Assembly: GCA_963422395.1 (NCBI GenBank)
Contig: OY729431.1
Location: 1,888,001 to 1,952,000, forward strand
DNA: 64,000 bases
Origin: Vicinamibacteria bacterium
GTDB taxonomy: Bacteria > Acidobacteriota > Vicinamibacteria > Marinacidobacterales > Marinacidobacteraceae
Reading direction: 5' to 3'
Every line of letters begins with the position of its first letter. Within the stretch, counting starts at the first letter, position 1. The position numbers were made by a program, and so were the translations under genes. Shown here piece by piece: positions 6,414-63,460 of the stretch. Under the pieces are notes generated by a model. The model did not search any database. It worked only from the letters and a program-made list of their open reading frames with translations, and was not told where the DNA came from.

Positions 6414-6877
6414 ACCTCCGATTTCCGCCCTATCGCCACCGGCCGGGCCAAACACCGCACCCGGAACGGGATCCGGGAGGGCATCGACTGCTGGAACAGC
6501 TGCCCCGAGAGCTGCTGCCGGCGGCGCCGGTTCCCTTGGCGGCGCTTCTCGACGCGGCGCTCTTCGACTACGGCGAGCGCCTGCTGCGGGCCGGGTACGC
6601 CTGGGAAGCCCACGCGGTCTGGGAAGAGCTCTGGCGCGCCGCGAAAGCTTCGGCGGAAGGGAACCAGACGCCCGAGAGCGAAGCGCTGCGCGCCTTCATC
6701 CAGCTCGCCGCCGCCGCGCTCAAGCACGAGCTCGGCAACGCTGCCGGAAGCCGGAAACTCCTCGCGGCGGCGGCGCGCTCTCTCCATCGCGCCGATCGCG
6801 GCGGCCGGGCAGCAGAGAGGATCGAAAGACGCTTCCGGGAACTTTCGACAGCGTGCGGGCTAGCAGCCCATGGATGA
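6410..6877 (+). CDS. DUF309 domain protein
   Basis: PPYRHRPGQTPHP...YAWEAHAVWEELW...FIQLAAAALKH. Start uncertain; stop lies in the adjacent repeat. Confidence 0.7.
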   Translation: MNLRFPPYRHRPGQTPHPERDPGGHRLLEQLPRELLPAAPVPLAALLDAALFDYGERLLRAGYAWEAHAVWEELWRAAKASAEGNQTPESEALRAFIQLAAAALKHELGNAAGSRKLLAAAARSLHRADRGGRAAERIERRFRELSTACGLAAHG

Positions 6878-7076
6878 AGTGGCGCGAGCACCGAGACCGG
6901 GCCAGTTCTCCCGGTGGGGGGGCGGCGCCTGGCTGACAAGGCGCGATTCGGGAGGCATACCGGGCGTATTCCGACTGATTTGCAACGAAGAGCGAAGCGG
7001 TTCAGCCAGGGACCCCACCGGGAGGACTGGGCATCGCCGGTCGACTGCCGTGTGACTTCGTCCAGGGGCGGGCTAG
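6860..7076 (+). mobile_element. MITE-like modular repeat element, copy E1
   Basis: CTAGCAGCCCATGGATGAAGT...GACTTCGTCCAGGGGCGGGCTAG. Internal stem CCAGTTCTCCCGGTGGGG/CCCCACCGGGAGGACTGG. Closely similar to 26652-26830 and, inverted, to 63271-63460. Confidence 0.85.
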
Positions 7077-7085
7077 CATCCTGAA

Positions 7086-8339
7086 ATGCCTCTCCCGCCG
7101 CCCGGAGACGAGGACATCGCGGTGCTCGTGGTGGACGATGAAGCGGTGATCCGCCGATCGCTCCGCCGGCGGCTGCGCTACGAGGGCTGGAGAGTCTCCG
7201 AAGCAGCCTCGGGGCCCGAGGCATTGGCCGCGCTAGAACGCGAACCGGTGGACCTCGTCGTCCTCGACATCAAGATGCCGGGGATGGACGGCATGGAAGT
7301 GCTCGAGCGCATCCGCTCCGAGCGACCCGCGATCGCGGTGGTGATGCACACCGGCCACGGGGATATCGAGACCGCGGTGCGGGCGATCCAGGCCGGAGCA
7401 GCGCACTTCCTCGAAAAGGGGGGAGGCGGAGACATCGGGGCCTGTCTGCGGATGGCGATCGAGAAGACCGCCACGCTCGAGCGGAAGCGCCTCGAAGGGG
7501 AGAACCGGCGCCTCGCCGCCGAAGTCGAGGAACATCGGAACCGGCAGGGTGCACAACGGCAACTGGTGGGGGACTCCCCGGTGCTGCGTGCGGTGCGCGA
7601 GCGGATCGAACGGGTGGCGCCGAGCGATGTGCGGGTGCTCATCACCGGGGAATCGGGCACCGGGAAGGAGGTCGCGGCGCGGCTCCTCCACGACGAAAGC
7701 CCCCGGGCGGGGGGGCCGTTCATCGAAGTCAACTGCGCCGCGATTCCCGAAGAGCTCATCGAGAGCGAACTGTTCGGTGCCGAGCGCGGCTCCTACACCG
7801 GAGCGCACCGGCAGAGGATCGGAAAGTTCGAGCAGGCGAACGGCGGCACTCTGTTCCTCGACGAGGTGGGCGACATGAGCCCGCGCACCCAAGCCAAAGT
7901 GCTGCGCGCGCTCGAGGAGCAACGGATCACCCGGGTCGGCGGCTCGAGTCCGGTCGCAGTGGATGTGCGGGTTCTCTCGGCGACGAACCAGAACCTCCGC
8001 CGGCAGGGCTTCCGCAGCGACCTGCTCCACCGGCTGGAGGTGATTCCTCTCGAGATGCCCCCTCTCCGGGAGCGCCGGGAAGACATCCCCGCACTCGTGG
8101 GCCATTTCCTCGAAACTCTCGAGCAGAACGAACACCAACGCCCCCGCCCGTTCACCGCCGGGGCGCTCCAGACGCTCGCGGCGCACTCGTTCCCGGGGAA
8201 TGTGCGCGAGCTCCGAAACCTCGTCGAACGGCTGCTGATCCTGAGCCCCGGAGACGAGATCGAGGAGGCCGATGTGCGGGAACAGCTGCGCGGCGGCGGC
8301 CCATCCCGGCCCGATGGAAACGGCGAAAACAACGATTGA
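7086..8339 (+). CDS. Sigma-54-dependent response regulator (NtrC/NtrX-like) lacking the C-terminal HTH
   Basis: Receiver (VVDDE, LDIKMP) plus AAA+ (GESGTGKE, ESELFG, GSYTGA, FLDEVG, FPGNVRELRN). Ends soon after the AAA+ domain. Confidence 0.9.
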   Translation: MPLPPPGDEDIAVLVVDDEAVIRRSLRRRLRYEGWRVSEAASGPEALAALEREPVDLVVLDIKMPGMDGMEVLERIRSERPAIAVVMHTGHGDIETAVRAIQAGAAHFLEKGGGGDIGACLRMAIEKTATLERKRLEGENRRLAAEVEEHRNRQGAQRQLVGDSPVLRAVRERIERVAPSDVRVLITGESGTGKEVAARLLHDESPRAGGPFIEVNCAAIPEELIESELFGAERGSYTGAHRQRIGKFEQANGGTLFLDEVGDMSPRTQAKVLRALEEQRITRVGGSSPVAVDVRVLSATNQNLRRQGFRSDLLHRLEVIPLEMPPLRERREDIPALVGHFLETLEQNEHQRPRPFTAGALQTLAAHSFPGNVRELRNLVERLLILSPGDEIEEADVREQLRGGGPSRPDGNGENND

Positions 8340-8446
8340 CGCGGCGGCCGAGAGAGCTGTTCGTTCGGCCGCCAACGAGCGGCTGAGGGTCGCGGAGACG
8401 ATGAGGGACTGCGGAAGGTAGAAGCAGAGTAGAATTCCCCCGGTTC

Positions 8447-8811
8447 GAGTCGTTCAGACGGTCGCCGGCTCGTTCGAGCGGGAGGAAAGTCCGAACTCCG
8501 AAAGGCAGTGCGCTGGATAACTCCCAGTCCGGGTGACCGGAAGGAAAGTGCCACAGAAAACAAACCGCCTCTTCCTTCGGGAGCGGCAAGGGTGAAAAGG
8601 TGCGGTAAGAGCGCACCGCCCGGGCAGTGATGTTCGGGGCACGGTAAACCCCGCATGGAGCAAGACCAAATAGAGAAGCGTCCGAGGGCCGCCTGTCCGA
8701 GCTTCCGGGTAGGTCGCTCGATCCGTCGGGCAACCGGCGGGCTAGATGCATGACCGTCGCCGCGTTCCGGGAAACCGGCTCGCGGAACAGAATTCGGCTT
8801 ACGAGCGGCTC
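8447..8811 (+). ncRNA. rnpB: RNase P RNA (class A)
   Basis: GAGGAAAGTCCGAACTCC, AGTGCCACAGAAAA, GGGTGAAAAGGTGCGGTAAGAGCGCAC, GGTAAACCCC..GGAGCAAG, ACAGAATTCGGCTTA. The 5' and 3' ends pair, and a TAGAAT -10 box lies at 8430. Confidence 0.97.
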
Positions 8812-9020
8812 GGACCGATCGTGCGGAACGATGGGCCTCGCCGGGCCGGCGGCGGATCGTGGCCCGGCCCCCCGGCCGGCGGCCGCCGGCCGGAATACCC
8901 ATCAGGAGTACCCGGCGGGGATCCCTTGTCTGGAGTGCTTTCTGGAAAGCTGTCGGGAACGATGACGGAACCGGCAACGGACCGGCGTGCGCCGCGGCCG
9001 CGGCCCGGAGCCGCCGGCCC

Positions 9021-9968: not shown

Positions 9969-11379
9969 GATTCCCGCCTTCAGTCCCATGGAAGGTCCCG
10001 CCGGTTCTGCGCCCATGCGCGAAAGCTCCGGGGATCCCGACCCCGGTTCCCGAGCCGGCGCGGCGCGCCGGCCGACAGCGGATCCATCGGCTCGGGGATT
10101 CACTTCCGCCGCGGCGGTCGCCGGCGCGCTCGCCTCGGGGATCGTGCTGTTCGGCGCCTCGGTTTCGGGCTCCTGGCACGGGCCCGTCCCCAAGGCTCCC
10201 GAACCGCCCGCGGTGAGGACGAGCGAGGCGCCCATCTACGGTCTCTTCCTGGTCCCCGACAGCTTCCTCCGAGGCGACTCGCTCTCGAATGTGCTGGAGC
10301 GCAACGGGTTCTCCGCGCGGGAGATCGCCGACATCACCGAAGCCCTCACCCCGGTCAGCGAGGTGAGGCGGTTGCGGGCAGGGCAATCGGTCTGGCTGCA
10401 TCGGAACGAGCGCGGTGTTCCCTCGCGCATCGAATTGCCGATCGAAGACTTCCGCAGGGTCTCGGTCGTCCGCTCTGCAAACGGCTGGACCGCTCGGGAA
10501 ACCGAAGGGGTCCGTTTCAAGCACCGCGAGACGGTACAGGGCATCCTGACCACGAGCCTCGACGAGGCGGTCCATCGGGCCGGCGAGCGCGCCGACCTCG
10601 CCATGTTGATCGCGCAAGTGCTCGAACACGATGTGGACTTCCATCGCGACCCGCGGCGGGGGGACACCTTCTCCCTCGTCGTGGACAAGCTCTACGACGC
10701 CGAAGGCGTCTGGAAGGGATACGGGGATCTCCACGCAGTGCGCTATCGCAACGCCGGCCGCGCGATCACCGCCTTCCGTTTCGAACTGCCGAGCGGGGCA
10801 TCGGGCTACTACGACCACGAAGGGAACTCCGTCCAGCGCTCCTTCCTGACGAGCCCGGTGGCCTACACCCGCATTTCGGGCGTCTTCACGAGCCGCCGAT
10901 TCCACCCGGTACATCGCGTTTACCGCCCTCACTACGGAGTGGACTACGCGGCGCCGCGGGGAACTCCGGTGCGGGCCACCGCCGACGGGGTGGTGGCAGA
11001 CGCCGGCCGTCGCGGCCCCAACGGAAACATGGTCACGCTGCGCCATGCCGGCGGCTATGTGACGAAATACCTCCACCTGCAGCGCATCGCTCCCGAAGCC
11101 CGAACCGGGCACTCGGTGCGGCAGCGGGAGATCATCGGATATGTCGGCTCCACCGGGGTTTCCACCGGGCCGCATCTCGACTACCGCATGTCCCGCTACG
11201 GGAGGCCGCTGAACCCGCGCACTCACATCCTGCCGCCAGGCCCACCGATCTCACCGGAGTACCGGGCGGCGTTCGATGCTTGGCGGAACGGCATGCTGGC
11301 TGCCCTCGACAGCCCGGCACCCCGACCGCGCCCGTCCACCGCACTCCGGACTCTGGACGCGAGCGGGGGCGGCTCTTAG
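9946..11379 (+). CDS. M23 family peptidoglycan DD-metalloendopeptidase
   Basis: RFHPV..YRPHYGVDYAAPRGTPV, YLHL, STGPHLDY. N-terminal TM segment; start uncertain. Confidence 0.9.
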   Translation: MELSRLVRIPAFSPMEGPAGSAPMRESSGDPDPGSRAGAARRPTADPSARGFTSAAAVAGALASGIVLFGASVSGSWHGPVPKAPEPPAVRTSEAPIYGLFLVPDSFLRGDSLSNVLERNGFSAREIADITEALTPVSEVRRLRAGQSVWLHRNERGVPSRIELPIEDFRRVSVVRSANGWTARETEGVRFKHRETVQGILTTSLDEAVHRAGERADLAMLIAQVLEHDVDFHRDPRRGDTFSLVVDKLYDAEGVWKGYGDLHAVRYRNAGRAITAFRFELPSGASGYYDHEGNSVQRSFLTSPVAYTRISGVFTSRRFHPVHRVYRPHYGVDYAAPRGTPVRATADGVVADAGRRGPNGNMVTLRHAGGYVTKYLHLQRIAPEARTGHSVRQREIIGYVGSTGVSTGPHLDYRMSRYGRPLNPRTHILPPGPPISPEYRAAFDAWRNGMLAALDSPAPRPRPSTALRTLDASGGGS

Positions 11380-11738
11380 CAGTCCGTGGATAAAGTCGCG
11401 CGAGCACCGAGAGCGGGCCCGTTCTCCCGGAAAGAGCCGCGGCTTTCACCCATAGCCTGAAAAAAACACCTGTTGCGACCGAGCCTCCGGCTCGGGCGCG
11501 GCACAGCGGGGGTATGTGTGAAAGGGGGTCCACCCCCTTTCACGAATTGGTACCTCGGAATCCGAACTCGCTGCCCCCGGCAGCAGTTCGGATTCCCGGC
11601 GCGGAGCGCCGGGCGCTTCGAGAGCGGGGCATCTTCCCTCCTCCCCCAAAAACGCCCGACGCCATCCCTGACGCCCCGCCCTCGGAGCGCACCGCCCGAG
11701 AGTCGAGGACCGCTGACATCCTCGTCCACCGCAGTTGA
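11376..11738 (+). mobile_element. Modular repeat element E2, carrying an inverted diverged copy of the 302-bp array unit
   Basis: Starts TTAGCAGTCCGTGGATAAAGTCGCGCGAGCACCGAGA. About 11460-11635 aligns to the reverse complement of the 34982-35283 unit. Right end is uncertain (degenerate CTCGTCCACCGCAG). Confidence 0.7.
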
Positions 11739-16423: not shown

Positions 16424-17416
16424 TCATCCCCCGCGGCCCTGGTTCTGAAGCGTCAGGTCGAGCCCCAGACCGCGGGCTCGGGCCGCTTCGTACACGAAGG
16501 CGGCGCAGGCCACATCCTCGATCGCCACTCCCACCGACTTGAAGAGCGTGATGTCCTCGTCCGACTCCCGACCCGGCTTCTTGCCGGCGACGATGTCTCC
16601 GAGCTCGGCGTGGATCGAGCTCTCTTCGAACTCCCCGCTGCGGAGAGCCGCCATCAGGTCGCCGGCCTCGGCGAGCACCTGCGGGCGGAAGTCGGGCACG
16701 ACCCGCGCGCGGGCGAATGCAGCCGCCTCGACCTCCCGTTTCACCGGAGCGTTGGCGCCCACCGAGTTCACATGCATACCCGGTTCGAGCCAATCCGCCC
16801 GGATCACCGGTTCCTTCGTGGTGGTGGCCGCGCACACGATGTCCGAACCGCGCATCGCGGCTGCGGCGCTTCCGACCGGCTCGGCGTCGAGGCCCTCGGC
16901 GGCGAGCGCGGCGGCAAAGGCGGCCGCTGCCTCGGGAACCGCGTCGTGGATCCGCACCCGGCGGATCTTCCGCACTTCGCGCACCGCCGCGGCCTGGTTA
17001 CGGCCCTGGAACCCCGCCCCGATGAGGCCGAGCGAGGAAGCGTCCTTCCGCGCCAGATACCGAGTCGCCACCCCGCTGGCCGCGCCGGTCCGAGTCCCGG
17101 TGATGTGGGTTCCCGGCATCACTGCCGAGAGCGCTCCGGTTTCGGCATCGAAGTAGAGGAGAGCGAAATAGGTCTCCTCCGGGGCGCGCTTTCCAGGAGT
17201 TCCGGTGAGCGTCTTCAGCCCGAAGCCACGCATCTCGGGAATCACCGCCGCCATGATCCGGAAGTTACCGGCAGCCCCCGAAAGCGGCAGGATCAAGCGC
17301 GGGGCCAGTTGAGTCCGGCCTTCGGCGTGAAGCCGGAAGGATTTCTCGAGAAGACCTACGGCATCCTTCATGGAAAGCGCCTCGGCGACCTCTCGTTCGG
17401 TGAGGATGAGTGCCAC
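16424..17416 (-). CDS. Ornithine cyclodeaminase/mu-crystallin family protein
   Basis: ITGTRTGAASGVAT, IGAGFQG, GMHVNSVG, ITLFKSVGVAIEDVA. Confidence 0.9.
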   Translation of the reverse strand: MALILTEREVAEALSMKDAVGLLEKSFRLHAEGRTQLAPRLILPLSGAAGNFRIMAAVIPEMRGFGLKTLTGTPGKRAPEETYFALLYFDAETGALSAVMPGTHITGTRTGAASGVATRYLARKDASSLGLIGAGFQGRNQAAAVREVRKIRRVRIHDAVPEAAAAFAAALAAEGLDAEPVGSAAAAMRGSDIVCAATTTKEPVIRADWLEPGMHVNSVGANAPVKREVEAAAFARARVVPDFRPQVLAEAGDLMAALRSGEFEESSIHAELGDIVAGKKPGRESDEDITLFKSVGVAIEDVACAAFVYEAARARGLGLDLTLQNQGRGG

Positions 17417-17433
17417 GGGACGAGTGTACCCGG

Positions 17434-17750
17434 CAGCTGCGACCTACGGTAGGTCGTTCATGCGAACCCGATCCCCGAAGCTCATCGGCATCCACCACCC
17501 CTCAGCAGAAGGAGCAACCTCGCTATCCGCCGCTTCGTCCACAGACTGCTGACAGCCTGTGGATGAAGTGGCGTGAGCGCCGAGAGTGGCCAGTTCTCCC
17601 GGTGGGGGCGGCGCCCGGCGGGCAAAGCGCGTGAGGGAGGAATCCCGGGAGTATTTCGACCGAAACAACGATGAACCCCGGGGAACTGGGCGTTCAGCCG
17701 GGGCCCCCACCGGGAGAACTGGGCCGTGTGACTTCGTCCACCGGCTGTCA
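17434..17750 (+). mobile_element. Two abutting modular repeat elements (E3a 17434-17552, E3b 17549-17750)
   Basis: Junction CTTCGTCCACAGACTG-CTGA-CAGCCTGTGGATGAAG. E3a body matches 23078-23160; E3b ends GACTTCGTCCACCGGCTGTCA, whose TCA is the ProDH stop. Confidence 0.82.
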
Positions 17751-18650
17751 ACCCCGGGAGAAGACCGCCCGGATCACATGATGGGCGAGCTCCGGGTTCT
17801 TGCGGAGACGGCGGAGCGAGTAAGGCAACCACTCCGGCCCGAACGGAACAGCGACCCGGACGCGGTGCCCGGCGCGCCGGACGATCTCCCGCAGGCGCGG
17901 GCGCACACCGTGGAGCATCTGGAACTCGTAGCGCTCCGGCGGCACTCCGAGTTCTTCCACCATCGTGGATGCCTTGAAGATCAGCCACTCGTCGTGGGTG
18001 GCGATGCCGACCGAACAACCCGCCGTCAGCAGCTCGCGAAGGAGTAAGCAGTAGTTCTCCCGGATAAGCTGCGGCTCGGTGTAGGCGATCTCGTGGGACT
18101 CCAGATAGACACCCTTGCAGAGCCGCACATAGAACCCGGGGGCGGCCAGCTTCCGCACATCGGCGAGGCTTCGCCGCATCCGCGCCTGGATCACCACTCC
18201 GAAGTTCAGGAAATCGGGATGGAGTTCCCGGTAGAGATCGAGCGTCGCGTCGATCCGCGGACTGTCCTCCATGTCCATCCGCAGGAAAGTGCCGCCGCGG
18301 CTCGATGCGTATTCCAGCAGCGAACGGACCTGGTCTCGGCAGAAGCCGCGGTCGAGAAGCAGCCCGAGCTGGGTCAGCTTCACATGGACATACGCAGCAA
18401 GCTCGCGGCGGGCGACCGTATCCAGGACCTCTCGGTACATTGCGGTGGCGGCTTCGGCCTCCGCCCGGCTCTCGACGAATTCGCCGAGCTGACTGATGGC
18501 GACCAGGTATCCCTGCCGGTTCAGCATCTCGGCCTCCCGGGCGGCCTCCTCCACCGTCTCGCCGGCGATGTATGGCCGGGCGAAGGGACGGACCGCAGCC
18601 TTGGGCAGGAACTGCAGGCTGGCCGCGATCGTCCGATCGAAGAGACCCAA
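17748..18650 (-). CDS. Proline dehydrogenase (monofunctional)
   Basis: PYIAGET, VKLTQLGL, RMDMED, VRLCKGVY, IATHD, EFQMLHG, YSLRRL. TTG start (MGLFDR) chosen because the upstream in-frame part lies in repeat E4. Confidence 0.9.
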   Translation of the reverse strand: MGLFDRTIAASLQFLPKAAVRPFARPYIAGETVEEAAREAEMLNRQGYLVAISQLGEFVESRAEAEAATAMYREVLDTVARRELAAYVHVKLTQLGLLLDRGFCRDQVRSLLEYASSRGGTFLRMDMEDSPRIDATLDLYRELHPDFLNFGVVIQARMRRSLADVRKLAAPGFYVRLCKGVYLESHEIAYTEPQLIRENYCLLLRELLTAGCSVGIATHDEWLIFKASTMVEELGVPPERYEFQMLHGVRPRLREIVRRAGHRVRVAVPFGPEWLPYSLRRLRKNPELAHHVIRAVFSRG

Positions 18651-18664
18651 ACCGGCCAACGCTC

Positions 18665-18818
18665 TCAGCAGTCTGTGGATGAAGTGGCGCGAGCCCCGAG
18701 AGCGGCCCATGCGGGGCCGGAAAGGCCCCGCGAACACGCCGAAGAGCGAGGGGTTCCCAGCCGAGTGTCCTCGACCGGGAGTCCCTCGCTGCTCGGCACT
18801 TCGTCCACAGGCTGTTAG
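18665..18818 (+). mobile_element. Modular repeat element E4
   Basis: TCAGCAGTCTGTGGATGAAGT...ACTTCGTCCACAGGCTGTTAG. Carries the module GCGGGGCC..GGCCCCGC / GAGCGAGGG..CCCTCGCT shared with 26835-26925. Confidence 0.82.
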
Positions 18819-18821
18819 ATG

Positions 18822-19703
18822 TTAGAGCTCGAAGTGGCGGAGGATGCGGTCGAGCGCCTCTTCGGTCGGGGAGTCGAGCGCTGCCGCCGGAGCCCGGATT
18901 CCGGGATGGGAGATCGCACCCCGGCGCCGGAGCATCTCCTTGCGGATCGCCATGCCGATCCCCTCCTGGAACTCGAAGCGCATCATCGGGGCATAACGGT
19001 AGAAGACTTCGGCGGCGCCGTCCCGGTCGCCGGCATCCCAGCGCGACACCACCGAGACGAGCAGCTTCGGATAGGCGAAACCGGTCATGGCGCCGGTAGC
19101 GCCGGCGAGGAGCTCCTCGAGGAGATAGGTCCCGCCGAGACCGCCGAAGATGCCGATCTCGATATCCGGGGTCCGCTCCCGGATCCGCGCCGCCTTGTAA
19201 GGCGTCGGGGCATCTTCCAGCTTGATCGTCCGCGCCGCCGGGATCTCCCGGCACAGGCGGGCGAGGAGGTCCGGTTCCATGGGAAAGCCGGAGATCGGCG
19301 GAAAGTCCTGGATCACGATGGGGATCGAGATCGTGTCGGCGATCGCGGCGAAGTGGCGGAAGACCGCCTCCGCGTTGCACCTCGGGGCACGCGGCGGAGA
19401 CACCATCACCCCAGCGGCGCCCGCCTGCTCGGCGGCGCGGCAACGCTCGAGGCAGATGTCGAGGCCCGGACCGGAAGCGCCGACGATCACCGGAACCCGG
19501 CCCGCCGCATGGCTCATGCTGGCGTCGAGGATCTCGTCGCGTTCGCGGTCGGAGATCCGGGACACCTCGCTGGTCACGCCGAGGGCGGTGAACCCGGATA
19601 CGCCGTCCTCGAGGAAGAGCGCGATCACTCGGCCGAGGCTCGCGGAATCGAAGCGGCCGTCCGCAGCGAAGGGGGTCGGAAGAACCGAGTAGACACCGTT
19701 CAT
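18822..19703 (-). CDS. Dihydrodipicolinate synthase (DapA/NAL) family aldolase-type enzyme
   Basis: GVYSVLPTPF, LGVTSE, VPVIVG, IKLED, GAMTGF. Confidence 0.88.
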   Translation of the reverse strand: MNGVYSVLPTPFAADGRFDSASLGRVIALFLEDGVSGFTALGVTSEVSRISDRERDEILDASMSHAAGRVPVIVGASGPGLDICLERCRAAEQAGAAGVMVSPPRAPRCNAEAVFRHFAAIADTISIPIVIQDFPPISGFPMEPDLLARLCREIPAARTIKLEDAPTPYKAARIRERTPDIEIGIFGGLGGTYLLEELLAGATGAMTGFAYPKLLVSVVSRWDAGDRDGAAEVFYRYAPMMRFEFQEGIGMAIRKEMLRRRGAISHPGIRAPAAALDSPTEEALDRILRHFEL

Positions 19704-19753
19704 GGGGCGATTCTCGCACAGCGGCACCCTCTCTCTGATACAACCCCGGTGTC

Positions 19754-20740
19754 ATGGAACTGCGCCTTCTCACCGCCGCCGAAGTCGTAGCGGCGATGCC
19801 CATGGCCGAGGCGATCCCGGTGGTGCGCCAGGCCTTCATCGAACTCTCCGCCGGCCGGGCGGTGATGCCGGTCCGTACCCGGGTGGAGGTGCCGCGTCGG
19901 TCCGGGATCAGCCTGCACATGCCGGCCTATCTGGAAGGCGGCCACCAGCTCGCCACCAAGATCGTCTCGGTGTTCCCCGAAAATCCGGGACGGATGCCGC
20001 CGCTGCCGACGATCCACGCCCTGGTGGTGGTTCTCGATCCCGAGACCGGGGCGCCCGCGGGAGTCCTCCACGGGGGGGCGCTCACCGCGATCCGCACCGG
20101 CGCCGCTTCGGGAGTCGCCACCGAAGAGCTCGCGCCAGCCGAAGTCCGGAGCGCCGGAGTGCTCGGCGCGGGAGTTCAGGCTCGCACCCAGCTCGAAGCG
20201 ATGGTCGCCGCGAGGCCGGGGATCGAGCGGGCCTCGGTGTACGACCCTCGGATCGGCGCCGCAGAAGCCTTCGCCGCCGAGATGTCGGAAAGGCTCGGTC
20301 TGCCGGTGACCGTCGCCTCCTCCGCCGATGCGGTCGTCGCCGCCTCCGAGGTGATCGCCGAGGCGACCACTGCGGAGACTCCGGTCTTCTCCGACGCCGC
20401 GCTCCGGGACGAGGCCCACCTGAACGCCGTAGGCTCGTTCACTCCCGCGATGCAGATCGTCCCCGAGGCAACCGTCGTCCGCTCGGCGGTGGTGGTGGAC
20501 CACCGCGAATCCTGCTGGGAAGAGGCCGGAGACCTGATCAAGCCCCGCGACCGCGGCGTAATCGACGAATCCCAGGTGCTCGCCGAGATCGGCGAGGTCG
20601 CCGCCGGAACCGCCCCCCGGCCCTCCAGCCGACCCACTCTGTTCAAGACCGTCGGCACCGCGGTCCAGGATGCCGCGGTCGGGGCGGCGACGCTCGCCCG
20701 CGCCGAGGAACGGGGTCTCGGAACGGTGATCGAACTGTAG
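19754..20740 (+). CDS. Ornithine cyclodeaminase/mu-crystallin family protein (second paralog)
   Basis: LTAIRTGAASGVAT, GAGVQA, HLNAVGSF, TLFKTVGTAVQDAA. Confidence 0.9.
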   Translation: MELRLLTAAEVVAAMPMAEAIPVVRQAFIELSAGRAVMPVRTRVEVPRRSGISLHMPAYLEGGHQLATKIVSVFPENPGRMPPLPTIHALVVVLDPETGAPAGVLHGGALTAIRTGAASGVATEELAPAEVRSAGVLGAGVQARTQLEAMVAARPGIERASVYDPRIGAAEAFAAEMSERLGLPVTVASSADAVVAASEVIAEATTAETPVFSDAALRDEAHLNAVGSFTPAMQIVPEATVVRSAVVVDHRESCWEEAGDLIKPRDRGVIDESQVLAEIGEVAAGTAPRPSSRPTLFKTVGTAVQDAAVGAATLARAEERGLGTVIEL

Positions 20741-20894
20741 AAGACGCCGGGATGCGGGCCGGCATCAGCGGCGAAGGCGGTACGCAACCCGGACTGCTCG
20801 ACGCCTCTGACCGAGCCAGCGTCGGCGATGGCGGGGCACCGTCCGCCGACGGCCAGTTCCTGCGGCAGCCGGGGGATATCTCCGGACGCCCCGC

Positions 20895-21755: not shown

Positions 21756-21812
21756 CCGGTGAGAATACGCCCCTCCGGGACGGGCGAGAATCGCTCTCCG
21801 AGACCGGCGGGA

Positions 21813-23096
21813 ATGGAACGGATCCGACTCGACTACGACGAACAGGGGCTGGATCTCCGGATCCCGGACCGGGCCGCCGGCCGCTTCGAAGTCATCCGGC
21901 CCCGCTTCCCGCCGCCGCTCGCGGACGAAGCCGGGGCGCTCCTCCGGGCCCTCCGGGAACCGGTCGCCGGCCCGCCGCTGCACGAGCGGGTGCCCCGGGG
22001 GGCCTCCGTCGCGATCTCGGTCTGCGATCCGACCCGTGCCCAGCCCCGGATCCCCATGCTCCGCGCCCTGCTCGAAGAGCTTCCAACCCCGCCGGAGCGG
22101 GTCACTCTGCTCGTCGCCACCGGGACCCATCGCCCGGCGACCGCGCGCGAGCTGGAAACGATGTTCGGCAGCGAGCTGCTCTCGGCCTGCGAGGTCGAAA
22201 ACCACGACTGCCGGGACGGCTCGGCGCTGGTCGAACTCGGGCGGACGGCGACCGGAGTCCCGGTGGCGCTGAACCGCCGCTTCGTCGAAGCCGATGTTCG
22301 CATCACCACCGGCTTCGTGGAGCCGCACTTCTTCGCCGGGTTTTCCGGGGGGCCGAAGATGATCGCCCCCGGACTCGCCGGCCTGGAAACGATCCTGATG
22401 CTCCACGACGGGCACCGGATCGGCCACCCCCGAGCGGTGTTCGGCATCACCGAGGGAAACCCGGTCCACGACGATGTGCGCGAGATTGCGCGGCGATTCC
22501 CGGCGGACTTCGGCCTCGATGTGCTCCTCGACGGAGAGAAGCGGATCACCGGAGTCTTCTCGGGCGATCTCGCCGAGGAACACGCTGCCGCCTGCCGGCG
22601 GTCGCGCGCCGAGGCGATGCGCCCGGTCGCCGGACCTTTCGAGGTGGTGGTGACCACGAATGCCGGCCATCCGCTCGACCTGAACCTCTACCAGGCGGTC
22701 AAGGGGATGGCGGCAGCGGCCAGGATCGTGCGCGAGAGCGGGACGATCCTCTGCGCCGCCGCCTGCCGCGAAGGGATCCCCGAAGGGGGCGCGTACGCCC
22801 GGGCGCTCCGCGCCGGTTCCTCGATCGAGGAAGTGCGGGAGGCGCTCGCCGCCTCCCCGGTGCGCCGGCCCGACGATTGGCAGGTCCAGATCCAGTGCCG
22901 CATCCTGGAACGGGCGCGGGTCGGGCTCTTTTCGAGGCTCCCCGACGAGACCGTCCGGGCGGTGCATCTGGATCCGGTGGCCGATCTCGACGCCGCCTGC
23001 CGGGAAGCGCTCGAGACTGCGGGGCCGCAGGCGCGGCTCGCGGTGCTGCCGCACGGACCGGTCACGATCCCTCATCTAGCTGTGACCTTGCGGTAG
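21813..23096 (+). CDS. larA: Nickel-dependent lactate racemase family protein (LarA)
   Basis: CDPTR, ATGTHR, NHD, EPHFFAGFSGGPK, DLNLYQAVKG, DDWQVQ. The C-terminus runs into repeat E5. Confidence 0.9.
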   Translation: MERIRLDYDEQGLDLRIPDRAAGRFEVIRPRFPPPLADEAGALLRALREPVAGPPLHERVPRGASVAISVCDPTRAQPRIPMLRALLEELPTPPERVTLLVATGTHRPATARELETMFGSELLSACEVENHDCRDGSALVELGRTATGVPVALNRRFVEADVRITTGFVEPHFFAGFSGGPKMIAPGLAGLETILMLHDGHRIGHPRAVFGITEGNPVHDDVREIARRFPADFGLDVLLDGEKRITGVFSGDLAEEHAAACRRSRAEAMRPVAGPFEVVVTTNAGHPLDLNLYQAVKGMAAAARIVRESGTILCAAACREGIPEGGAYARALRAGSSIEEVREALAASPVRRPDDWQVQIQCRILERARVGLFSRLPDETVRAVHLDPVADLDAACREALETAGPQARLAVLPHGPVTIPHLAVTLR

Positions 23097-23310
23097 GTTG
23101 TTCACACGAACCCGATGCCCGGAACTCATGGGCATCCACAACCCCTCAGCACAAGGAGGCGCCCGGCTGACGAGGCGCGATTCGGGAGGCATACCGGGAG
23201 TATTCCGACGGAATCGCAACGCCGAGCGAAGCGGTTCAGCCGGGCCCCCACCGGGAGGACTGGGCATCGCCGACCTTTGGCCGTGTGACTTCGTCCACAG
23301 GCTGCTCTAG
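23076..23310 (+). mobile_element. Modular repeat element E5
   Basis: Bounded by CTAG. The first half matches E3a and the second half matches E1/E6; ends GACTTCGTCCACAGGCTGCTCTAG. Confidence 0.82.
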
Positions 23311-25707: not shown

Positions 25708-25734
25708 AGGCTGTGGGTATTCTCCCGGACGCTC

Positions 25735-26655: not shown

Positions 26656-26957
26656 CAGTCCGTGGATGAAGTGGTGCGAGCACCGAGACCGGGCCAGTTC
26701 TCCCGGTGGGGGCGGCGCCTGGCGGACAAGGCGCGAATCGGGAGACAAACCGGCGTATTCCGACTGATTCGCAACGAAGAGCGAAGCGGTTCAGCCAGGG
26801 CCCCCACTGGGAGAACTGGGCATCGCCGGTCGCTCCGAGCGGGGCCGAATATGGCCCCGCGAGCACGCCGGAGAGTGAGGGGCTCCCGGTCGGGATCCCC
26901 GACGGGAGTCCCTCGCTACTCGGCAAATGCCGTGTGACTTTGTCCACGGGCTGCTAA
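26652..26957 (+). mobile_element. Modular repeat element E6 (longest two-ended copy)
   Basis: CTAGCAGTCCGTGGATGAAGT...GACTTTGTCCACGGGCTGCTAA. Contains the E1 body plus the E4 module. Confidence 0.87.
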
Positions 26958-38411: not shown

Positions 38412-38460
38412 CAGTCCGTTTCCGCAGTCACACGGCAGCCGACCGGCGATGCATCTCGGC
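38409..38460 (-). repeat. Truncated modular repeat element E7
   Basis: TAGCAGTCCGTTTCCGCAGTCACACGGCAGCCGACCGGCGATGC matches the start of E9 and the reverse complement of the E8 right end. Its TAG is the ihfB stop. Confidence 0.75.
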
Positions 38461-38516
38461 GCAGCCGGTTCGCCGCTGGCGGCGAGAGCCCGCGGACGCG
38501 CGCCGAAGGCGCGGCG

Positions 38517-43963: not shown

Positions 43964-44125
43964 CCGCCTGTGGAGGAAGTGACACGAGCTCCAAGAGCGA
44001 GCCCGTTCTCCCCGGCGGGGCTCCGCCGTGTCCCCCAACGGAAGAACAGGACATCGCCGGTCGCTCCATGCGGAGCCAGCATGGCCCCGCGAACACGCCG
44101 GGTGACTTCGGAAACGGGCTGCTAG
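43961..44125 (+). mobile_element. Modular repeat element E8
   Basis: TAGCCGCCTGTGGAGGAAGT...GACTTCGGAAACGGGCTGCTAG. Its left TAG is the stop of the upstream gene. Confidence 0.78.
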
Positions 44126-48339: not shown

Positions 48340-48532
48340 CTCGTTATGAGTTCTTGCGCTATGAGATTTCAGGGTCGGATTCGGGTTTCCCGGTCAAAGA
48401 AATCCTCAGAGCTCGGGAACGGCGGCTTCCCTCGCGTGGGCGGGGATCCGTCAGGCGGGACTCGGGCCTCGATCCGCGGGGGCGTCCGGCGGGCGGGGCG
48501 ACGGCTTCCCGGAGCTTCGAGACCGCGATCGG

Positions 48533-50032: not shown

Positions 50033-50278
50033 GGTGTCCGCCCTCCCGACCGGTTCCACTGCGTCGGATCAGGGCAACCAAATCGGCATGGACCTGTTCT
50101 GGAGCGAAAGCCGGTCAAATACGCCAAGTCGTTCCATATCATTGCGTTACGAGGATCGCGGGTTCGGGTTCGGGTCTCCCGGTCAAAGAAATCCGCGGCG
50201 CTCGGCAACGGCGGCCTCCCGAACATCGAGCTTGCCGGTGACGACATCGGCGACGAGCCGCATCCGGTATTCCTCGAC

Positions 50279-50420
50279 CCGCTCGATGCGATTACCCGGC
50301 GCGACATCGAGGCTCGCTTCCATCTCATCACCGAACGGCGCGGCCCGGGAGCCAGCTCAGCGCATCGCCGACAGGATCGACGAGCTGATGGGTGCGGCGG
50401 GAGGCCCGGAACCGGTCGCG
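50279..50420 (+). pseudogene. Tyrosine integrase scar (N- and C-terminal bits joined)
   Basis: PLDAITRRDIEARFHLITERRG followed, in another frame, by REPAQRIADRIDELMG. Both resemble integrase segments as recalled; not searched. Confidence 0.45.
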
Positions 50421-50800
50421 ACCTCATCGGCGCCGGACCAGGTCATGCTTCGGTCACTGTCGCACGGCGCGGAGGTCGATTGTAAGCCGTCCGGCGGCGC
50501 GCTACAGATTTCCGCGGGCAGTCCGGCTGCCGCCGCCGAAGAAATGGACCAGGAACGTGTCGGCGGTGTTGCCGGGTATCGCCATTGCTGCGCTCATCGT
50601 GCCGTCTCCGTTTTGCCGTCGGTGGGGAACGGCGGCGACGCCTCCCTTCGGGACGCCGACCGCTGCCCCGCTTCCGGCCAGACTCTCCTCTCGATCGCGC
50701 CGGGCGCGGTCGGGCGCGATCATCGGTATGCGACGTCATCGCCGGACCGGGGACGGGACGGCGGCAGACCGGCGATGCGTCGCGGAACGCGGGGCGGGCG

Positions 50801-50826
50801 TTGACGGGCTGTAGCCTGACGGCTAC
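50801..50826 (+). promoter_or_regulatory. TA promoter with operator palindrome
   Basis: TTGACG (-35) followed by GTAGCC-TGAC-GGCTAC about 10 bp before the toxin ATG. Confidence 0.6.
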
Positions 50827-50835
50827 GGTGTGCAC

Positions 50836-51126
50836 ATGTCCGAGGTCCGCAAGACCGATGTCTACGCCAGGTGGCTTGACGGGCTGCGGGATCCCCGTGC
50901 CCGGGCGCGCGTCCTCGTCCGGGTCGAGCGTCTGGCGACCGGCAACCCCGGAGACGTCAGACCCGTCGGTGAAGGCGTATCGGAACTGCGGATCGACTAC
51001 GGACCGGGCTACCGGGTGTACTACAAGCAGCAGGGGCGCACGGTCGTCGTCCTGCTGGCCGGCGGGGACAAGCGTTCCCAGGACGACGACATCGCGACGG
51101 CCATGCGCCTCGCACGAAACCTGTAG
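50836..51126 (+). CDS. RelE/ParE-family (HigB-like addiction module killer) toxin
   Basis: WLDGLRD..ARARVLVRVERLATGNPGD..VGEGVSELRIDYGPGYRVY..LLAGGDK. Confidence 0.92.
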   Translation: MSEVRKTDVYARWLDGLRDPRARARVLVRVERLATGNPGDVRPVGEGVSELRIDYGPGYRVYYKQQGRTVVVLLAGGDKRSQDDDIATAMRLARNL

Positions 51127-51135
51127 GTGGGCGAC

Positions 51136-51462
51136 ATGACCGGAACCGCGACTTCACCCTACGACGTGGCCGAGCACCTTCGCACGGCGGAGGACATGGC
51201 GGCGTATCTGGAAGCCGCCATCGAGGAGGCCGGCGACGACGCCGCGTTCGTCGCCAGGGCGCTGGGCGACATCGCCCGCGCCAAGGGCATGTCGCAGGTC
51301 GCATGCGACGCCGGCCTGTCGCGCGAGAGCCTCTACAAGGCGCTCTCGGGAGAACGCAATCCGACGTTGAGCACGGTTCTCAGGGTCGTCTCCGCTCTGG
51401 GTTTGAAGCTGCGCGCCGAAGCGGCGCCCGCTTCCGGCCCGGACGCGCCGGCGCATGGTTGA
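51136..51462 (+). CDS. Addiction module antidote protein (HTH, HigA-like)
   Basis: YDVAEHL..YLEAA..ALGDIARAKGMSQVA..GLSRESLYKALSGERNP. Confidence 0.92.
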   Translation: MTGTATSPYDVAEHLRTAEDMAAYLEAAIEEAGDDAAFVARALGDIARAKGMSQVACDAGLSRESLYKALSGERNPTLSTVLRVVSALGLKLRAEAAPASGPDAPAHG

Positions 51463-51531
51463 AATCGAACCAGCGGGAATCCTGGTTCCTTGTAACCCAT
51501 TGTAATTCTGGCTGTATTTCGGCACGAAAGG

Positions 51532-52115
51532 TTCACGATGTCCCAGCCGCCGGCGGCACCGGGGCGAATCAACCCGTCGCGGGCCAGAGCCGAAAGGGCG
51601 GTTCGCCGCCTTTCCTGGCTTTCGATGGCGAGAACCGGGTCCCGACGATCCGGTGGGTTCCGTTCTGGACCCCCCATACGAGATAACCGGCCGGCTTGCC
51701 GCACAGAGCCGCGCCGTTCGCAAGCGCCGACAGATACTTGCCGATGACCTGCGGATCGCTCTGATTTTCCTTGAACTCAACCCATTCGGTCTCCTGCGGC
51801 AACCGGCTGAGCTCCCGTACCAGGCTGGCGATGCGGTCCGGATTCCGGTCAGCGGTCATGGTGTCCGCCCTCCCGACCGGTTCCACTGCGTCGGATCAGG
51901 GCAACCAAATCGGCATGGACCTGTTCTGGAGCGAAAGCCGGTCAAATACGCCAAGTCGTTCCATATCATTGCGTTACGAGGATCGCGGGTTCGGGTTCGG
52001 GTCTCCCGGTCAAAGAAATCCGCGGCGCTCGGCAACGGCGGCCTCCCGAACAATCGAGCTTGCCGGTGACGACATCGGCGACGAGCCGCATCCGGTATTC
52101 CTCGACCCGCTCGAT
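51532..52115. repeat. Direct duplication of 49365-50287 with a 340-bp internal deletion; truncated AlbA_2 gene copy
   Basis: 51532-51601 equals 49365-49434, then jumps to 49771 at GCGG(C/T)TCGCC microhomology and continues to 50287 nearly identically. Confidence 0.92.
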
Positions 52116-52610
52116 CTGGAGGCGGGTTCGCTCGATGGCGCGGTCGAGAGCTGCGGTCGCGCGGTCCAGGTACGCGGCGATGGCCCGCTGCTCCGCCAGC
52201 GGCGGAACAGGGACTGGCAGGACAGCGAATCTCCCCTCCGCAACTGCCGGATAGACAACACCTACCGACTCCCGCATCACGCTGTCAGTGAAACCGATGC
52301 TCTGAGTAACAAAGGTCACGAACATCGGATCGGTGTCCGGTTTCGGGGTCAGCACGATAAATCCAGTCGAACAGATGATGTCCGTAGCGGCTGAAGGCAA
52401 CGTCCAGCCGCTCGAAGATAGGTACGGACTGCCGAAACGATCGTGTCTCCTTTCCTTACGATGCGCCGCGCTCGCGAGGGCGCCACCGAGAACCGGAGCT
52501 GCGACGGCGGCTCGAGCAGTACACCCTGTCCCACCGACCCGATATCTATGTAAGAGAAATGGTAAACGAGCGTGAAAATCCCCCGCGGCGAGTGCCTCTC
52601 CCACCGAGGC
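52010..52610 (-). pseudogene. hsdS: Type I R-M specificity subunit remnant
   Basis: APSRARRIVRKGDTIVSAVRTYL, ICSTGF, YPAV, PVPPLAEQRAIAAYLD...EEYRMRLVADVVTGKLD; frameshifted. Confidence 0.85.
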
Positions 52611-52730
52611 GGTGTTCCGCGCGACGATCTCCTCGAGGAAGCTGTCTCGGAGAACGGGCTTTTCGGCCGCGACCCACGCCGCTCGAAACCCATGAGGTTC
52701 CGTAGGATGTTTCGATGCGTACTGTCATGA

Positions 52731-52739
52731 TGCTATGAT
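52731..52739 (+). promoter_or_regulatory. Extended -10 promoter, leaderless vapB transcript
   Basis: TGCTATGAT ends 6 nt before the ATG at 52746; ATGATGC repeats overlap it. Confidence 0.5.
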
Positions 52740-52745
52740 GCGCCC

Positions 52746-53009
52746 ATGCGCACCACATTGACGATCGAAGATGACATCCTGCGGGAACTGAGGCGCCTCG
52801 CCCACTCCCGGAGAGTTTCCCTGACCCGCATCGCCAACGAAACGCTGGGCGCCGGGCTGGCCCGGGCGGCCGCCGCCCAAGCGCCGCGACGGTTCCGGCA
52901 GCGAGTCTTCGATCTGGGAGAGCCGATGGTGAATCTGGACCACGCACTTCGGATCGCCGCGGCGCTGGAAGACGAAGAGACAGCTCGTGAAATGGCCGCC
53001 GAACAGTGA
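52746..53009 (+). CDS. vapB: VapB-like ribbon-helix-helix antitoxin
   Basis: MRTTLTIEDDIL...NLDHALRIAAALEDEE; GTGA overlap with the PIN toxin. Confidence 0.85.
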   Translation: MRTTLTIEDDILRELRRLAHSRRVSLTRIANETLGAGLARAAAAQAPRRFRQRVFDLGEPMVNLDHALRIAAALEDEETAREMAAEQ

Positions 53010-53443
53010 CCGTCGTCGATCTGAATGTCCTCCTCTACGCCGTCAACTCCTCTGCACGCAGGCATCGGGTTGCACGCGAATGGCTGGAAACGGCGATCGG
53101 CAGTGATGAGCCGACCGGGCTTGCCTGGACCGTTCTGCTGGGCTTTCTCCGTCTGAGTACGCGCCGCGGAATCATCTCGCAACCCCTCGGCGTGGAAGCG
53201 GCCAGCCGCCTGGTCGCCGACTGGCTCGCCGAGCCCGGCGTGCGCCTGGTAACCGAGACCGAAGAGCACTGGCGGCATCTCAGCGACCTGCTCGCACACA
53301 CCGGAACCGGCGGCAACCTCACCACCGATGCCCACCTCGCGGCCATCGCCATCTCCCGTGGCGCCACCCTGGTCTCTTTCGGCCACGACTTCGACCGCTT
53401 CCCGGGCCTTCGCTGGTTGAACCTTTCCGCAAAGCCCATCTGA
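53006..53443 (+). CDS. vapC: VapC PIN-domain ribonuclease toxin
   Basis: VVDLNVLLYA, GFLRLST, GNLTTDAHLAA, DFDRFPGLRW. Confidence 0.9.
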   Translation: MTVVDLNVLLYAVNSSARRHRVAREWLETAIGSDEPTGLAWTVLLGFLRLSTRRGIISQPLGVEAASRLVADWLAEPGVRLVTETEEHWRHLSDLLAHTGTGGNLTTDAHLAAIAISRGATLVSFGHDFDRFPGLRWLNLSAKPI

Positions 53444-53533
53444 CCTATGAATGGAAGCTGATATAGCGATCGATGTCGTTCGAGTGACTTCGTAGTATGG
53501 GGATATGGGTATGGGGATGCGTCGAGTGGAAAT

Positions 53534-60779: not shown

Positions 60780-63226
60780 CCGACGAGCACCTCCTCTCCC
60801 GAGGTCTGCGGAAGCAGTTCGCCCCCGCGCTGACGCACCACGAGTTCCCCCTTTTCGAGAACCATCTCCACCGGGACGCCCGGTCCCACTTCTCCGGTGA
60901 GCACCGCTTCCGAGAGGGGATCCTCGACATGCCGCTGGAGCGCCCGCCGCAGCGGGCGGGCACCGTAGGCGCGATCCTGAAGCGTGTTCCGGAGGAGGAA
61001 TGCCTCGGCTTCCGGCGAGAGTTCGACCGTGAGGCCGCGCTCGCCGAGTTCGCGGTTCATGCGCCGGATCATGCGCCGCAGGATCTCGGCGAGATCCGAT
61101 TCGGTCAGCATGTCGAAAACGACCACCGCGTCGAGGCGGTTCAGGAACTCGGGGCTGAAGGTCTTCTTCACTTCTCCCTGGATCAGTTCGCGCATCGCGC
61201 GCTTCCGCGGGTCCGGATCCGCCGACGCGAAACCGAGCGATGCCGGCTTCGAGAGGCGCCGCGCCCCGAGATTCGAAGTCATGATGATGATCGAATTCCG
61301 GAAATCCACCACATTCCCGAGGCCGTCGGTGAGCCGGCCGTCTTCGAAGACCTGCAAGAGCAGATTCCAGACATCGGGATGCGCCTTTTCGATCTCGTCG
61401 AGCAACAACACGCAATACGGGTTGCGGCGGACGCGCTCGGTCAGATGCCCGCCTTCCTCGTGTCCCACATAGCCCGGCGGCGAGCCGATGAACCGCGAGA
61501 CCGAGTGCCGTTCCAGGTACTCGCTCATGTCGAAACGCAGGAGCGCCTGTTCCGTTCCCAGGAGGAACTCGGCGAGCGAGCGAGCGACCTCGGTCTTCCC
61601 CACCCCGGACGGTCCCAGGAACAGGAAGACGCCGCCGGGCCGGAGCGGGCTCGCGAGCCCGGCGCGGGTGCGCCTGATGGCCCGCGCCACGCTCCCCACC
61701 GCCTCGTTCTGCCCCACGATCCGCTCATGGAGCTCTTTCTCGATCCGCAACAGCTTGCGGCTCTCTTCCTCCTCGATCGAGCCGAGCGGGATTCCGGTCC
61801 AGTCGGCCACCACCTCGTCTATGTCGCGGCGGGTCACCAGGGGCCGGTCCGCATCCCTGGTCTCCCAGCGGTTGCGGATCGCCGCGAGACTCTCACGCTC
61901 GGCGTTCTCCTGGTCCTGCGCCAGCGAGGCGCGCTCGAGGTCGTCCCCGGCCAGCGCCCGGTCCTTGCGTTCGCAAATGGCGCGGATCCGCTTGCGAACC
62001 TCGGCGAACTCCCTCGAGACACTGCTCTCGCGCAGCTTGACCCGCGAACCCGCCTCGTCGAGGAGGTCCACGGACTTGTCGGGAAGGAACCGATCGGTGA
62101 CATAGCGCTGCGCCTGGCGCACGGCCGCCTCGATCGCGTCCGGTGCGTAGTGGACATGGTGGTAGCGCTCGTAGCGCTGCTGCACTCCACGCAGGATGAC
62201 CAGCGTCTCCTCGTCGCCGGGCGCCTCCACCCGGACTCCCTGAAAACGCCGTTCGAGGCTCCGGTCGCGCTCGATATGCCGGCGGAATTCGGCCGGGGTG
62301 GTCGCTCCGATGCACTGGATGCCGTCGCGGGAAAGCGCGGGTTTCAGAATGTTCGCGGCGTCGAGCGAGCCCTCCGCCGAACCCGCGCCGACCAGAGTGT
62401 GCAGTTCGTCCACGAAGACGAGGAACGACGGCGATTCCTCGAGCTCCTTGATGATCGCCTTGAGCCGCTCTTCGAACTGCCCCCGGTATTTGGTTCCGGC
62501 CACCACCAGGGAGATGTCGAGCGAAACGATCCGGCGTTCGGCGAGGAAGATCGGGCACTCCCCGCTCACGATCCGGCTGGCGAGCCCCTCGACGATGGCC
62601 GTCTTGCCGGTCCCCGGCTCTCCGATGAGCACCGGGTTGTTCTTGCTGCGGCGGCATAGGACCTGGATCACCCGCTCCAGCTCCGCTCGCCGGCCGATCA
62701 GCGGGTCGAAAGCCCCTTCGCTGGCCGCCTGGGTCAGATCGCGGGAAAACTCGGCGAGCAGCGGAGTCTCGCGGAACCGCTGTCCGGCCTTCCTCCGGCC
62801 CCGTTCGAGGGCGATGGCTTCGCGGACGGTCGGGGCGCGCACCCCCTGCCGGGCGAGGATCGCGGCGGCCCCCGAGCCCGACTCCCGCAGCACGCCGAGC
62901 AACAGGTGTTCCGTCCCGATGTGTTCGTGATGCATCCGGTCCGCTTCTTCCTTCGCGTGCTCGAGCACCCGCTTCGACTCGGCGGAGAGCGGAATCCCCG
63001 CCGAAGTCGAAACGGTGTCCCGCAGCAGGACATGGCTCTGCACCTCACCGCGAACGCGTTCGATCGAGATGCGCAGCCGTCCGGCGACGGCAGCGGGAAG
63101 CTCCCGGAGGAGGCCGAGAAGCAGGTGTTCGGGTTCGATGGCGTTGCCTCCCAACTGCGACGCCTCGTGCCGCGCGAAATAGATGGCTCGCTTGGCGCGC
63201 TCTGTATAACGCTCGAACACTGGCAA
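60776..63226 (-). CDS. clpC: ATP-dependent Clp protease ATP-binding subunit (ClpC-like)
   Basis: [17 protein letters not shown] x2, [52 protein letters not shown]. Confidence 0.95.
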
Positions 63227-63270
63227 ACCCTCCGGCCCTGGAGATCCAGGAAGCCGCGGACGACCGGAAT

Positions 63271-63460
63271 TTAGCAGCCCGTGGACGAAGTCACACGGCA
63301 GTCGACCGGCGATGCCCAGTCCTCCCGGTGGGGGCCCCGGCTGAACCGCTTCGCTCTTCGTTGCGAATCAGTCGGAATACGCTCGGTATGCCTCCCGATT
63401 CGCGCCTTGTCCGCCAGGCGCCTCCCCGGTCTCGGTGCTCGCGCCACTTCATCCTGCTAG
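63271..63460 (-). mobile_element. Modular repeat element E9 (inverted relative to E1)
   Basis: TTAGCAGCCCGTGGACGAAGTCACACGG...GCGCCACTTCATCCTGCTAG. The terminal CTA is the lolD stop. Confidence 0.85.

Follow-up and report, generated by a model that had tools for sequence, protein, structure and literature searches.

A family of modular hairpin MITEs with the ends of an IS1182-like insertion sequence in Acidobacteriota

Introduction

Correia elements (CREE/NEMIS) of Neisseria are hairpin-forming MITEs (miniature inverted-repeat transposable elements) of 100-160 bp that occur at high density, form subtypes according to their internal segments, and are often adjacent to genes and co-transcribed. 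They have 26-bp ends and duplicate TA, and we know of no cognate transposase for them. In the BOX elements of Streptococcus pneumoniae, conserved end modules enclose a short internal box whose copy number varies; to our knowledge, these elements lack inverted ends with duplications of the type seen in insertion sequences (IS). Here, we describe a family of modular hairpin elements in a 64,000-nucleotide stretch of DNA (hereafter the window) from Vicinamibacteria bacterium, phylum Acidobacteriota (assembly GCA_963422395.1, contig OY729431.1, positions 1,888,001 to 1,952,000 of the forward strand). The family is of an ordinary kind, that of MITEs, but its copies are unusually well conserved.

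The family resembles the MITEs that derive from or are mobilised by IS of the IS5/IS1182 superfamily in that its copies are short, non-coding, numerous and intergenic, bear the same terminal inverted repeats as a DDE IS and show a probable 4-bp duplication at a TAG-containing target. It differs from them by an interior that is unrelated to the IS beyond the ends and whose core is conserved across three phyla, and the transposase involved falls under the NCBI curated cut-offs for both IS5 and IS1182. Like Correia elements, the copies are dense hairpin MITEs, often located next to genes, with subtypes that differ by internal segments; unlike them, as far as a comparison by description allows, they have a mostly CTAG 4-bp target and a matching IS. 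They share with BOX elements a modular build with a variable short internal unit, but the 19-nt cassette that plays this part here varies in position and orientation. ERIC-type hairpin repeats are likewise comparable in the way they work, but the family is set apart from them by the CTAG-like 4-bp target, the cognate IS, the cross-phylum core and the movable cassette. Finally, unlike the REP/REPIN-RAYT system, the window exhibits no GTAG or CGTC tag and no RAYT gene that we could see, and the ends are those of a DDE-type IS. REP/REPIN sequences are described as intergenic palindromic repeats, with proposed roles that include termination and mRNA stabilisation (PMC3733652).

In literature searches, we found no description of this MITE family. 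PMC11602168 names entries of the IS1106_IS5 type as described MITEs, and its supplementary MITE catalogues may list members of the family; in PMC8841776, MITEs appear only in the reference list.

Results and discussion

The elements carry the ends of an IS1182-like insertion sequence

The end motif AGCAGYCYGTGGAYGAAGT is present 14 times in the 64-kb window when up to 3 mismatches are tolerated, against 0.10 expected, and none of 100 shuffles reached 14. Direct reading, self-BLAST and an nhmmer search, the latter with a profile derived from 16 foreign copies, agreed on the same set of copies. This set bears out the positions given in an initial annotation of the window made from the sequence alone, and adds no place to them. 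The elements are non-coding, intergenic hairpins of 111-298 bp, with about ten copies in the window, all located between Pfam-supported genes in a Pfam scan of 61 window open reading frames (ORFs) selected by their third-position G+C content (GC3). Across the window and the loci fetched from other genomes, we counted 45 inverted end pairs with the 17-bp ends CAGYCYGTGGAYGAAGT. Within the window, copies are 70-92% identical to one another by self-BLAST. A weak 36-nt similarity at 45717-45752, inside comEC, was judged to be due to chance, and a blastn search of E6, the longest copy, against a plasmid collection gave no match.

A scan of one genome per species with the exact motif returned at least 87 loci. 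Twelve of the loci listed, all from one Vicinamibacterales metagenome-assembled genome (MAG), revealed a 1504-bp IS with the end motif at both ends, present in many copies. It contains a single ORF of 461 codons whose product carries DUF772, DDE_Tnp_1 and DDE_Tnp_1_6 domains (Pfam, above the cut-offs for DUF772 and DDE_Tnp_1) and is 100% identical in eight IS copies. The best NCBIfam match of this transposase is IS1182, at 176.6 bits (below the curated cut-off of 270 for NF033551), while it scored 103.4 bits against the IS5 family NF033581 (cut-off 140). Among the nine IS copies with both flanks visible, seven are bordered by identical 4-nt flanks (CTGG, CTGA twice, CTAT, CTAA, CTAC and CTAG), and in the other two the flanks are one base apart. 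The 1504-bp element is therefore an IS that is bounded by inverted ends of 17 bp and duplicates 4 bp of its target. The initial annotation had likened the ends to those of some IS5/IS1182-type elements and proposed a search for a transposase gene flanked by the same terminal repeats; this DDE protein is such a transposase, and the likeness holds.

Relatives of the transposase found by protein similarity alone support this reading of the element. Two of them, encoded by the alphaproteobacterial plasmids Sphingobium indicum pCHQ1 and one of Rhodovastum, are 48-51% identical to the 461-aa protein, and the ends of the corresponding elements match the motif at 14-15 of 17 positions, with flanks CTAA/CTAG in pCHQ1 and GTAG/GTAG in Rhodovastum. 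Furthermore, a transposase 45% identical to it adjoins the same end motif in a Pirellulales MAG. An autonomous element with the same ends thus exists in the Vicinamibacterales MAG and not within the window, where a tblastn search with the cognate transposase returned nothing. This agrees with the earlier proposal that any mobiliser lies elsewhere. The window does contain an IS5-family element (c.270-1475) with a transposase in two overlapping frames (DUF772 at 316-684, DDE_Tnp_1 at 642-1298), and its own ends are, as previously noted, unrelated to those of the MITEs.

Copies with an interior 70-80% similar to that of the window elements were found in about 28 of the 87 loci listed. These belong to MAGs of Vicinamibacteria, of Gemmatimonadota/Longimicrobiales and of other Acidobacteriota, as well as to Candidatus Marinacidobacterium. 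In Myxococcota MAGs, elements of 150-170 bp have the same ends and, by alignment, share the B core of the acidobacterial family, where the AT-rich apical hairpin occupies the same place, so that the core is conserved across three phyla. Elements of Nannocystaceae and some tiny elements have only the ends in common with the family. Tiny elements of Planctomycetota and Opitutaceae MAGs (loci L046, L039 and L055) contain little beyond the two ends; the one at L046:2003-2059 is 57 bp long and is flanked by CTAG and TTAG. A comparison of the window with the flanks of the loci listed revealed no orthologous flanks for the window's own copies.

The target is mostly CTAG and often coincides with a stop codon

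The initial annotation had placed the ends at TAGCAG...CTGCTA. Comparison of the flanks of the matching IS copies shows that only the inner part of this reading stands: the ends proper are CAG...CTG, and the outer TAG and CTA belong to the flanking target, (C/T)TAG and mostly CTAG, rather than to the repeat. Of the 45 end pairs, 14 have identical 4-nt flanks, namely 11 CTAG, one CTGG, one CTCG and one doubtful CCAG, and the flanks of most other pairs are one-base variants. Non-palindromic duplications are clear for the MITE copies at loci L023 (CTGG) and L026 (CTCG). Together with the IS, these cases settle a 4-bp target duplication as the mechanism for the clade. We also observed that variant flanks are often paired as TTAG...CTAA, as would be expected if the outer C had changed to T on each of the two strands.

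CTAG is strongly depleted in the window, which belongs to a genome of 68% G+C: 18 occurrences were observed, compared to 187 expected from mononucleotide composition and 45 under a Markov model. Seven of the 18 are located at the flanks of element ends. A GC3-supported ORF stops exactly at the element end in 14 of the 41 copies examined. In the window, this is the case for the genes encoding the M23 peptidase, proline dehydrogenase, the DUF481 protein, the ABC ATPase and ComEC. Our tally of element orientation relative to the gene whose stop codon abuts the element gave 8 sense and 9 antisense cases, which does not support a role as a strand-specific RNA of the 3' untranslated region (3'-UTR). 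Because CTAG is depleted and many of the surviving CTAGs are stop codons, we propose that the elements gather right behind ORFs.

Copies in the window

E6 (26656..26953, plus strand) is a full copy and contains a cassette at 26694-26712 (plus), the B core at 26713-26800, a second cassette at 26801-26819 (minus) and module D at 26833-26927. It is flanked by CTAG and CTAA, and the DUF481 ORF upstream terminates with the TAG of the left flank. E1 (6864..7072, plus strand), also full, consists of an arm, a cassette, the B core, a cassette and an arm, lies between CTAG at 6860-6863 and CTAG at 7073-7076, and stops 10 nt upstream of the start codon (7086) of a gene for a sigma-54 response regulator. 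E3b (17553..17747, plus strand) is a full copy with a diverged B core between cassettes at 17590-17608 (plus) and 17704-17722 (minus); its right end abuts the stop codon of the minus-strand proline dehydrogenase gene. Just 4 nt (CTGA) separate it from E3a (17434..17548, plus strand), which is made of module E and a right end. E4 (18669..18814, plus strand), another full copy, carries a left end and arm, module D and a right end between flanks TCAG and TTAG, and is located between the DHDPS-family and proline dehydrogenase genes.

E5 (23080..23304, plus strand) follows CTAG at 23076 and is composed of module E (23080-23158), the B core, a cassette at 23245-23263 (minus) and a right end. Two convergent ORFs, encoding LarA (plus) and a penicillin amidase (minus), both end inside E5, their last 6 and about 22 codons, respectively, being encoded by the element. 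E10 (63275..63456, minus strand) is a full copy in inverted orientation, with a 6-nt deletion in one end and flanks TTAG (63271) and CTAG (63457); the ABC ATPase gene, on the minus strand, has its TAG stop codon in the CTA at 63457-63459.

The remaining copies are incomplete. E2 (11380..c.11434, plus strand) is truncated and retains only the left end, and its flanking TTAG (11376-11379) holds the TAG stop of the M23 peptidase ORF. A solo right arm (38413..38473, minus strand) is formed by an end and about 45 nt, with GTAG at 38409-38412. E8 (43964..44121, plus strand; flanks GTAG and CTAG) is degenerate, with a decayed cassette pair, the first hairpin of D and a decayed right end. Of two remnants suspected earlier, the one at 46667-46685 (plus strand) is an end motif with 2 mismatches located directly at the TAG stop of the ComEC ORF, while that at 30482 amounts to about 7-9 nt beside a CTAG and is too short to judge.

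Modules and a movable 19-nt cassette

The modules A/C, B, D and E delineated by the initial annotation match the sequence, with one refinement: the A/C stem is a single discrete 19-nt cassette, CCAGTTCTCCCGGTGGGGG, used in two orientations, as exemplified by the copy at 6902..6920 (plus strand) inside E1. The window and the loci together contain 33 hits at up to 3 mismatches, 20 of them exact. All 9 window copies of the cassette lie within elements. When mapped on a natural cassette-free copy, the cassette occupies six or more positions on the scaffold, in both orientations and with 0-3 copies per element, and it is about 97% conserved per site compared to a mean column identity of 83% for the scaffold.

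Outside recognisable elements, the cassette was found in 3 of 24 copies in the loci (L013:3146-3164, L033:3407-3425 and L069:335-353), in stretches that contain no convincing ORF; the flanks of two of these copies are similar. In the six-frame translations of L013:2650-3170, the same peptide-like strings keep recurring, suggestive of a further tandem DNA repeat; the cassette sits at its edge. We rejected the cassette as a DNA-uptake-type motif, given that 9 of 9 window copies are inside elements and just 3 of 24 locus copies are outside. A location inside a conserved gene was likewise discarded, the three outside copies lacking a convincing ORF, and a promoter or ribosome-binding-site reading of the core and cassette was dropped on inspection by eye.

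Two orthologous pairs with identical flanks on both sides revealed changes at a fixed site. In the first pair, the cassette of L035 replaces 3 nt of the apical hairpin, which is intact in L077 and in other phyla; the cassette in L035 is therefore an insertion. In the second pair, the 90-bp D module is present in L082 and absent from L043. Module exchange thus occurs in copies that are already resident. Gene conversion with paralogs or replication errors linked to the hairpin could account for it.

Module D is homologous in E6, E4, partly E8 and three foreign copies. Module E was found in the window and not in the foreign loci listed; it substitutes for the left end and is not nested in E6. Within the window, modules follow one another as they do in E6, which reads end, arm, cassette, B, cassette, arm, D and end. 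The shuffling of modules beyond simple deletion that the initial annotation had put forward is nonetheless confirmed by the positions and orientations of the cassette and by the orthologs that differ by a cassette or by D. A fixed module order, as expected of deletion derivatives, accordingly describes the window but not the other genomes, where cassette positions vary.

One composition did not hold, that of E2 as a partial A followed by a module F. F is the unit of a separate array located between carA and rpsA (34982-35966), in which a 301-bp unit is repeated 3.3 times with 96% matches. A fragment of this otherwise unrelated repeat, 75-87% identical to the unit, lies beside E2 at 11463-11634, in the opposite orientation, and is not followed by a right end. 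F is thus not shown to be a module and merely adjoins E2. Short stretches similar to the 301-bp unit were also seen in a Marinacidobacterium locus (L076:2664-2796).

Compensatory changes in the hairpin and slow divergence of orthologous copies

Folded as single-stranded DNA, the whole element forms one hairpin (z -8.96 for E6 and -5.27 for E1). A consensus hairpin derived from 16 cassette-free foreign copies contains 60 predicted pairs, 14 of which exhibit compensatory double changes. Paired cells reached 96.8%, compared to 91.5% in shuffles, none of 500 shuffles being as high, and slid controls gave 34-37%. Mismatches on the plus strand of the 16-copy alignment were biased, with G.T in 96 cells and A.C in 7; restricted to minor-variant positions, the counts were 18 and 6 (p = 0.023), with the caveat that the list of pairs came from folding the plus strand. 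In Rfam, no relevant match reached the gathering level in the window (only RNase P did), and a search at E values up to 1 over 17380-27020 yielded one chance-level microRNA hit.

Identity between orthologous copies is 96.1-97.8%, against 78-90% at third codon positions in the ORFs that flank them (Fisher tests, p = 7.5e-8 and 5.2e-10). The adjacent non-element spacer, about 80 nt, looks less conserved by a rough count. This slow divergence suggests constraint on the resident copies. Furthermore, orthologs are far more alike than paralogs, which makes frequent homogenisation unlikely and constraint on each copy the simpler reading.

Origin of the family and alternative explanations

We consider it likely that the copies are MITEs bearing the 17-bp recognition ends of an IS1182-like DDE IS, moved in trans and diversified in situ. 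In this model, a transposase encoded outside the window would act in trans and insert the MITEs into a 4-bp target, usually CTAG or a one-base variant of it, duplicating the target, so that the duplicated TAG would preserve the stop codon of the gene. Copies would then persist in place long after insertion and diversify as discrete internal hairpin cassettes (the 19-nt cassette, D and E) are acquired or lost, the likeliest route being gene conversion with paralogous copies or hairpin-associated replication errors, while the long hairpin would be maintained through compensatory changes.

Several observations weigh against this model. No homologue of the cognate transposase was detected in the window by tblastn, the MITE interiors share nothing with the IS past the first 18-20 nt of the ends, and about 48 kb of IS flanks in the IS-bearing MAG contain no MITE of this family. 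With identities of just 70-92%, the window copies give no sign of recent transposition or of a burst there. Since the flanks in the window are the CTAG palindrome or variants such as TTAG...CTAA, a duplication is indistinguishable there from an extended inverted repeat. Three ortholog groups (about 92% identical overall) are filled in every member with no empty site; the loci were selected by the end motif and are hence biased to filled sites, and empty ones could not appear. Finally, orthologous copies diverge 4-6 times slower than third codon positions, which a purely selfish relic does not predict.

This last point supports an alternative that we consider less likely, namely that the copies, spread by transposition, are now selected and act mainly as host-functional structured RNA or DNA hairpins (3'-end stabilisers, terminators or protein-binding sites), with the cassette as a putative binding site. 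Besides the slow divergence of orthologous copies and the seemingly less conserved spacer, the 14 compensatory pairs, the plus-strand excess of G.T over A.C, the conservation of the B core and its AT-rich apical hairpin across three phyla and the higher conservation of the cassette than of the scaffold are consistent with it. Conversely, no Rfam family matches the elements, the balanced sense and antisense orientations speak against a strand-specific 3'-UTR RNA, and several window copies (E2, E8, 38413 and 46667) are truncated or decayed; rare gene conversion toward the family consensus could equally slow divergence, and the G.T pairs were listed from plus-strand folding. A speculative variant, which we regard as possible though doubtful, would have the resident copies exapted and under purifying selection at each locus, with the near-invariant 19-21-nt cassette as a separate functional unit that enters and leaves fixed MITEs at defined hairpin positions, being either a putative site of protein binding or a tiny mobile cassette that inserts by a mechanism of its own; the G.T excess would then reflect selection on the single-stranded form of one strand. 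It is highly improbable that all variants are deletion derivatives of one long master element, in fixed order and with no module exchange: every window copy is collinear with E6, and E1, E4 and E8 could each pass for an E6 that has lost a part, but the range of cassette positions, orientations and copy numbers across genomes, the insertion in L035 into a hairpin intact in L077, and module E in the place of the left end all contradict it. We give almost no credence to REP/REPIN-type palindromes moved by a RAYT (Y1/HUH) transposase. The copies are indeed intergenic, hairpin-forming and abundant, and inverted cassette pairs resemble REP doublets; however, the ends belong to a DDE IS with 4-bp duplications, Pfam detected no Y1 transposase family among the 61 window ORFs, the cassette itself is not palindromic, and there is no GTAG- or CGTC-tagged unit of 20-40 bp like those described in PMC3733652.

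Transposition in trans from an IS1182-like source, followed by changes in place, would tie a repeat family that abounds in Acidobacteriota, a poorly studied and mostly uncultured group, to an IS1182-like transposase clade and to a CTAG target, and such a target would explain the accumulation of the repeats exactly at stop codons in a genome of high G+C content. About 3% of the window is repeat DNA of this kind, which matters for annotation as a source of false ORF extensions and assembly breaks. The family departs from a routine MITE in two respects: the pace at which orthologous copies evolve is as slow as that of first and second codon positions, and fixed copies gain and lose the 19-nt cassette by exchange. 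Should either of these reflect function, the family would be a clear case of bacterial MITE domestication.

Other features of the window

A bacterial class A RNase P RNA gene is located at 8446-8816 on the plus strand (304 bits). We also observed a stretch of lower G+C content at 48300-53450 with Schlafen/AlbA_2 genes, which looks like a small defence or toxin-antitoxin island. It contains a 518-bp segment duplicated at 99.6% identity (49771-50287 and 51598-52115), a Gp49-like/HTH antidote pair (50815-51459) and a PIN-domain gene (52991-53440).

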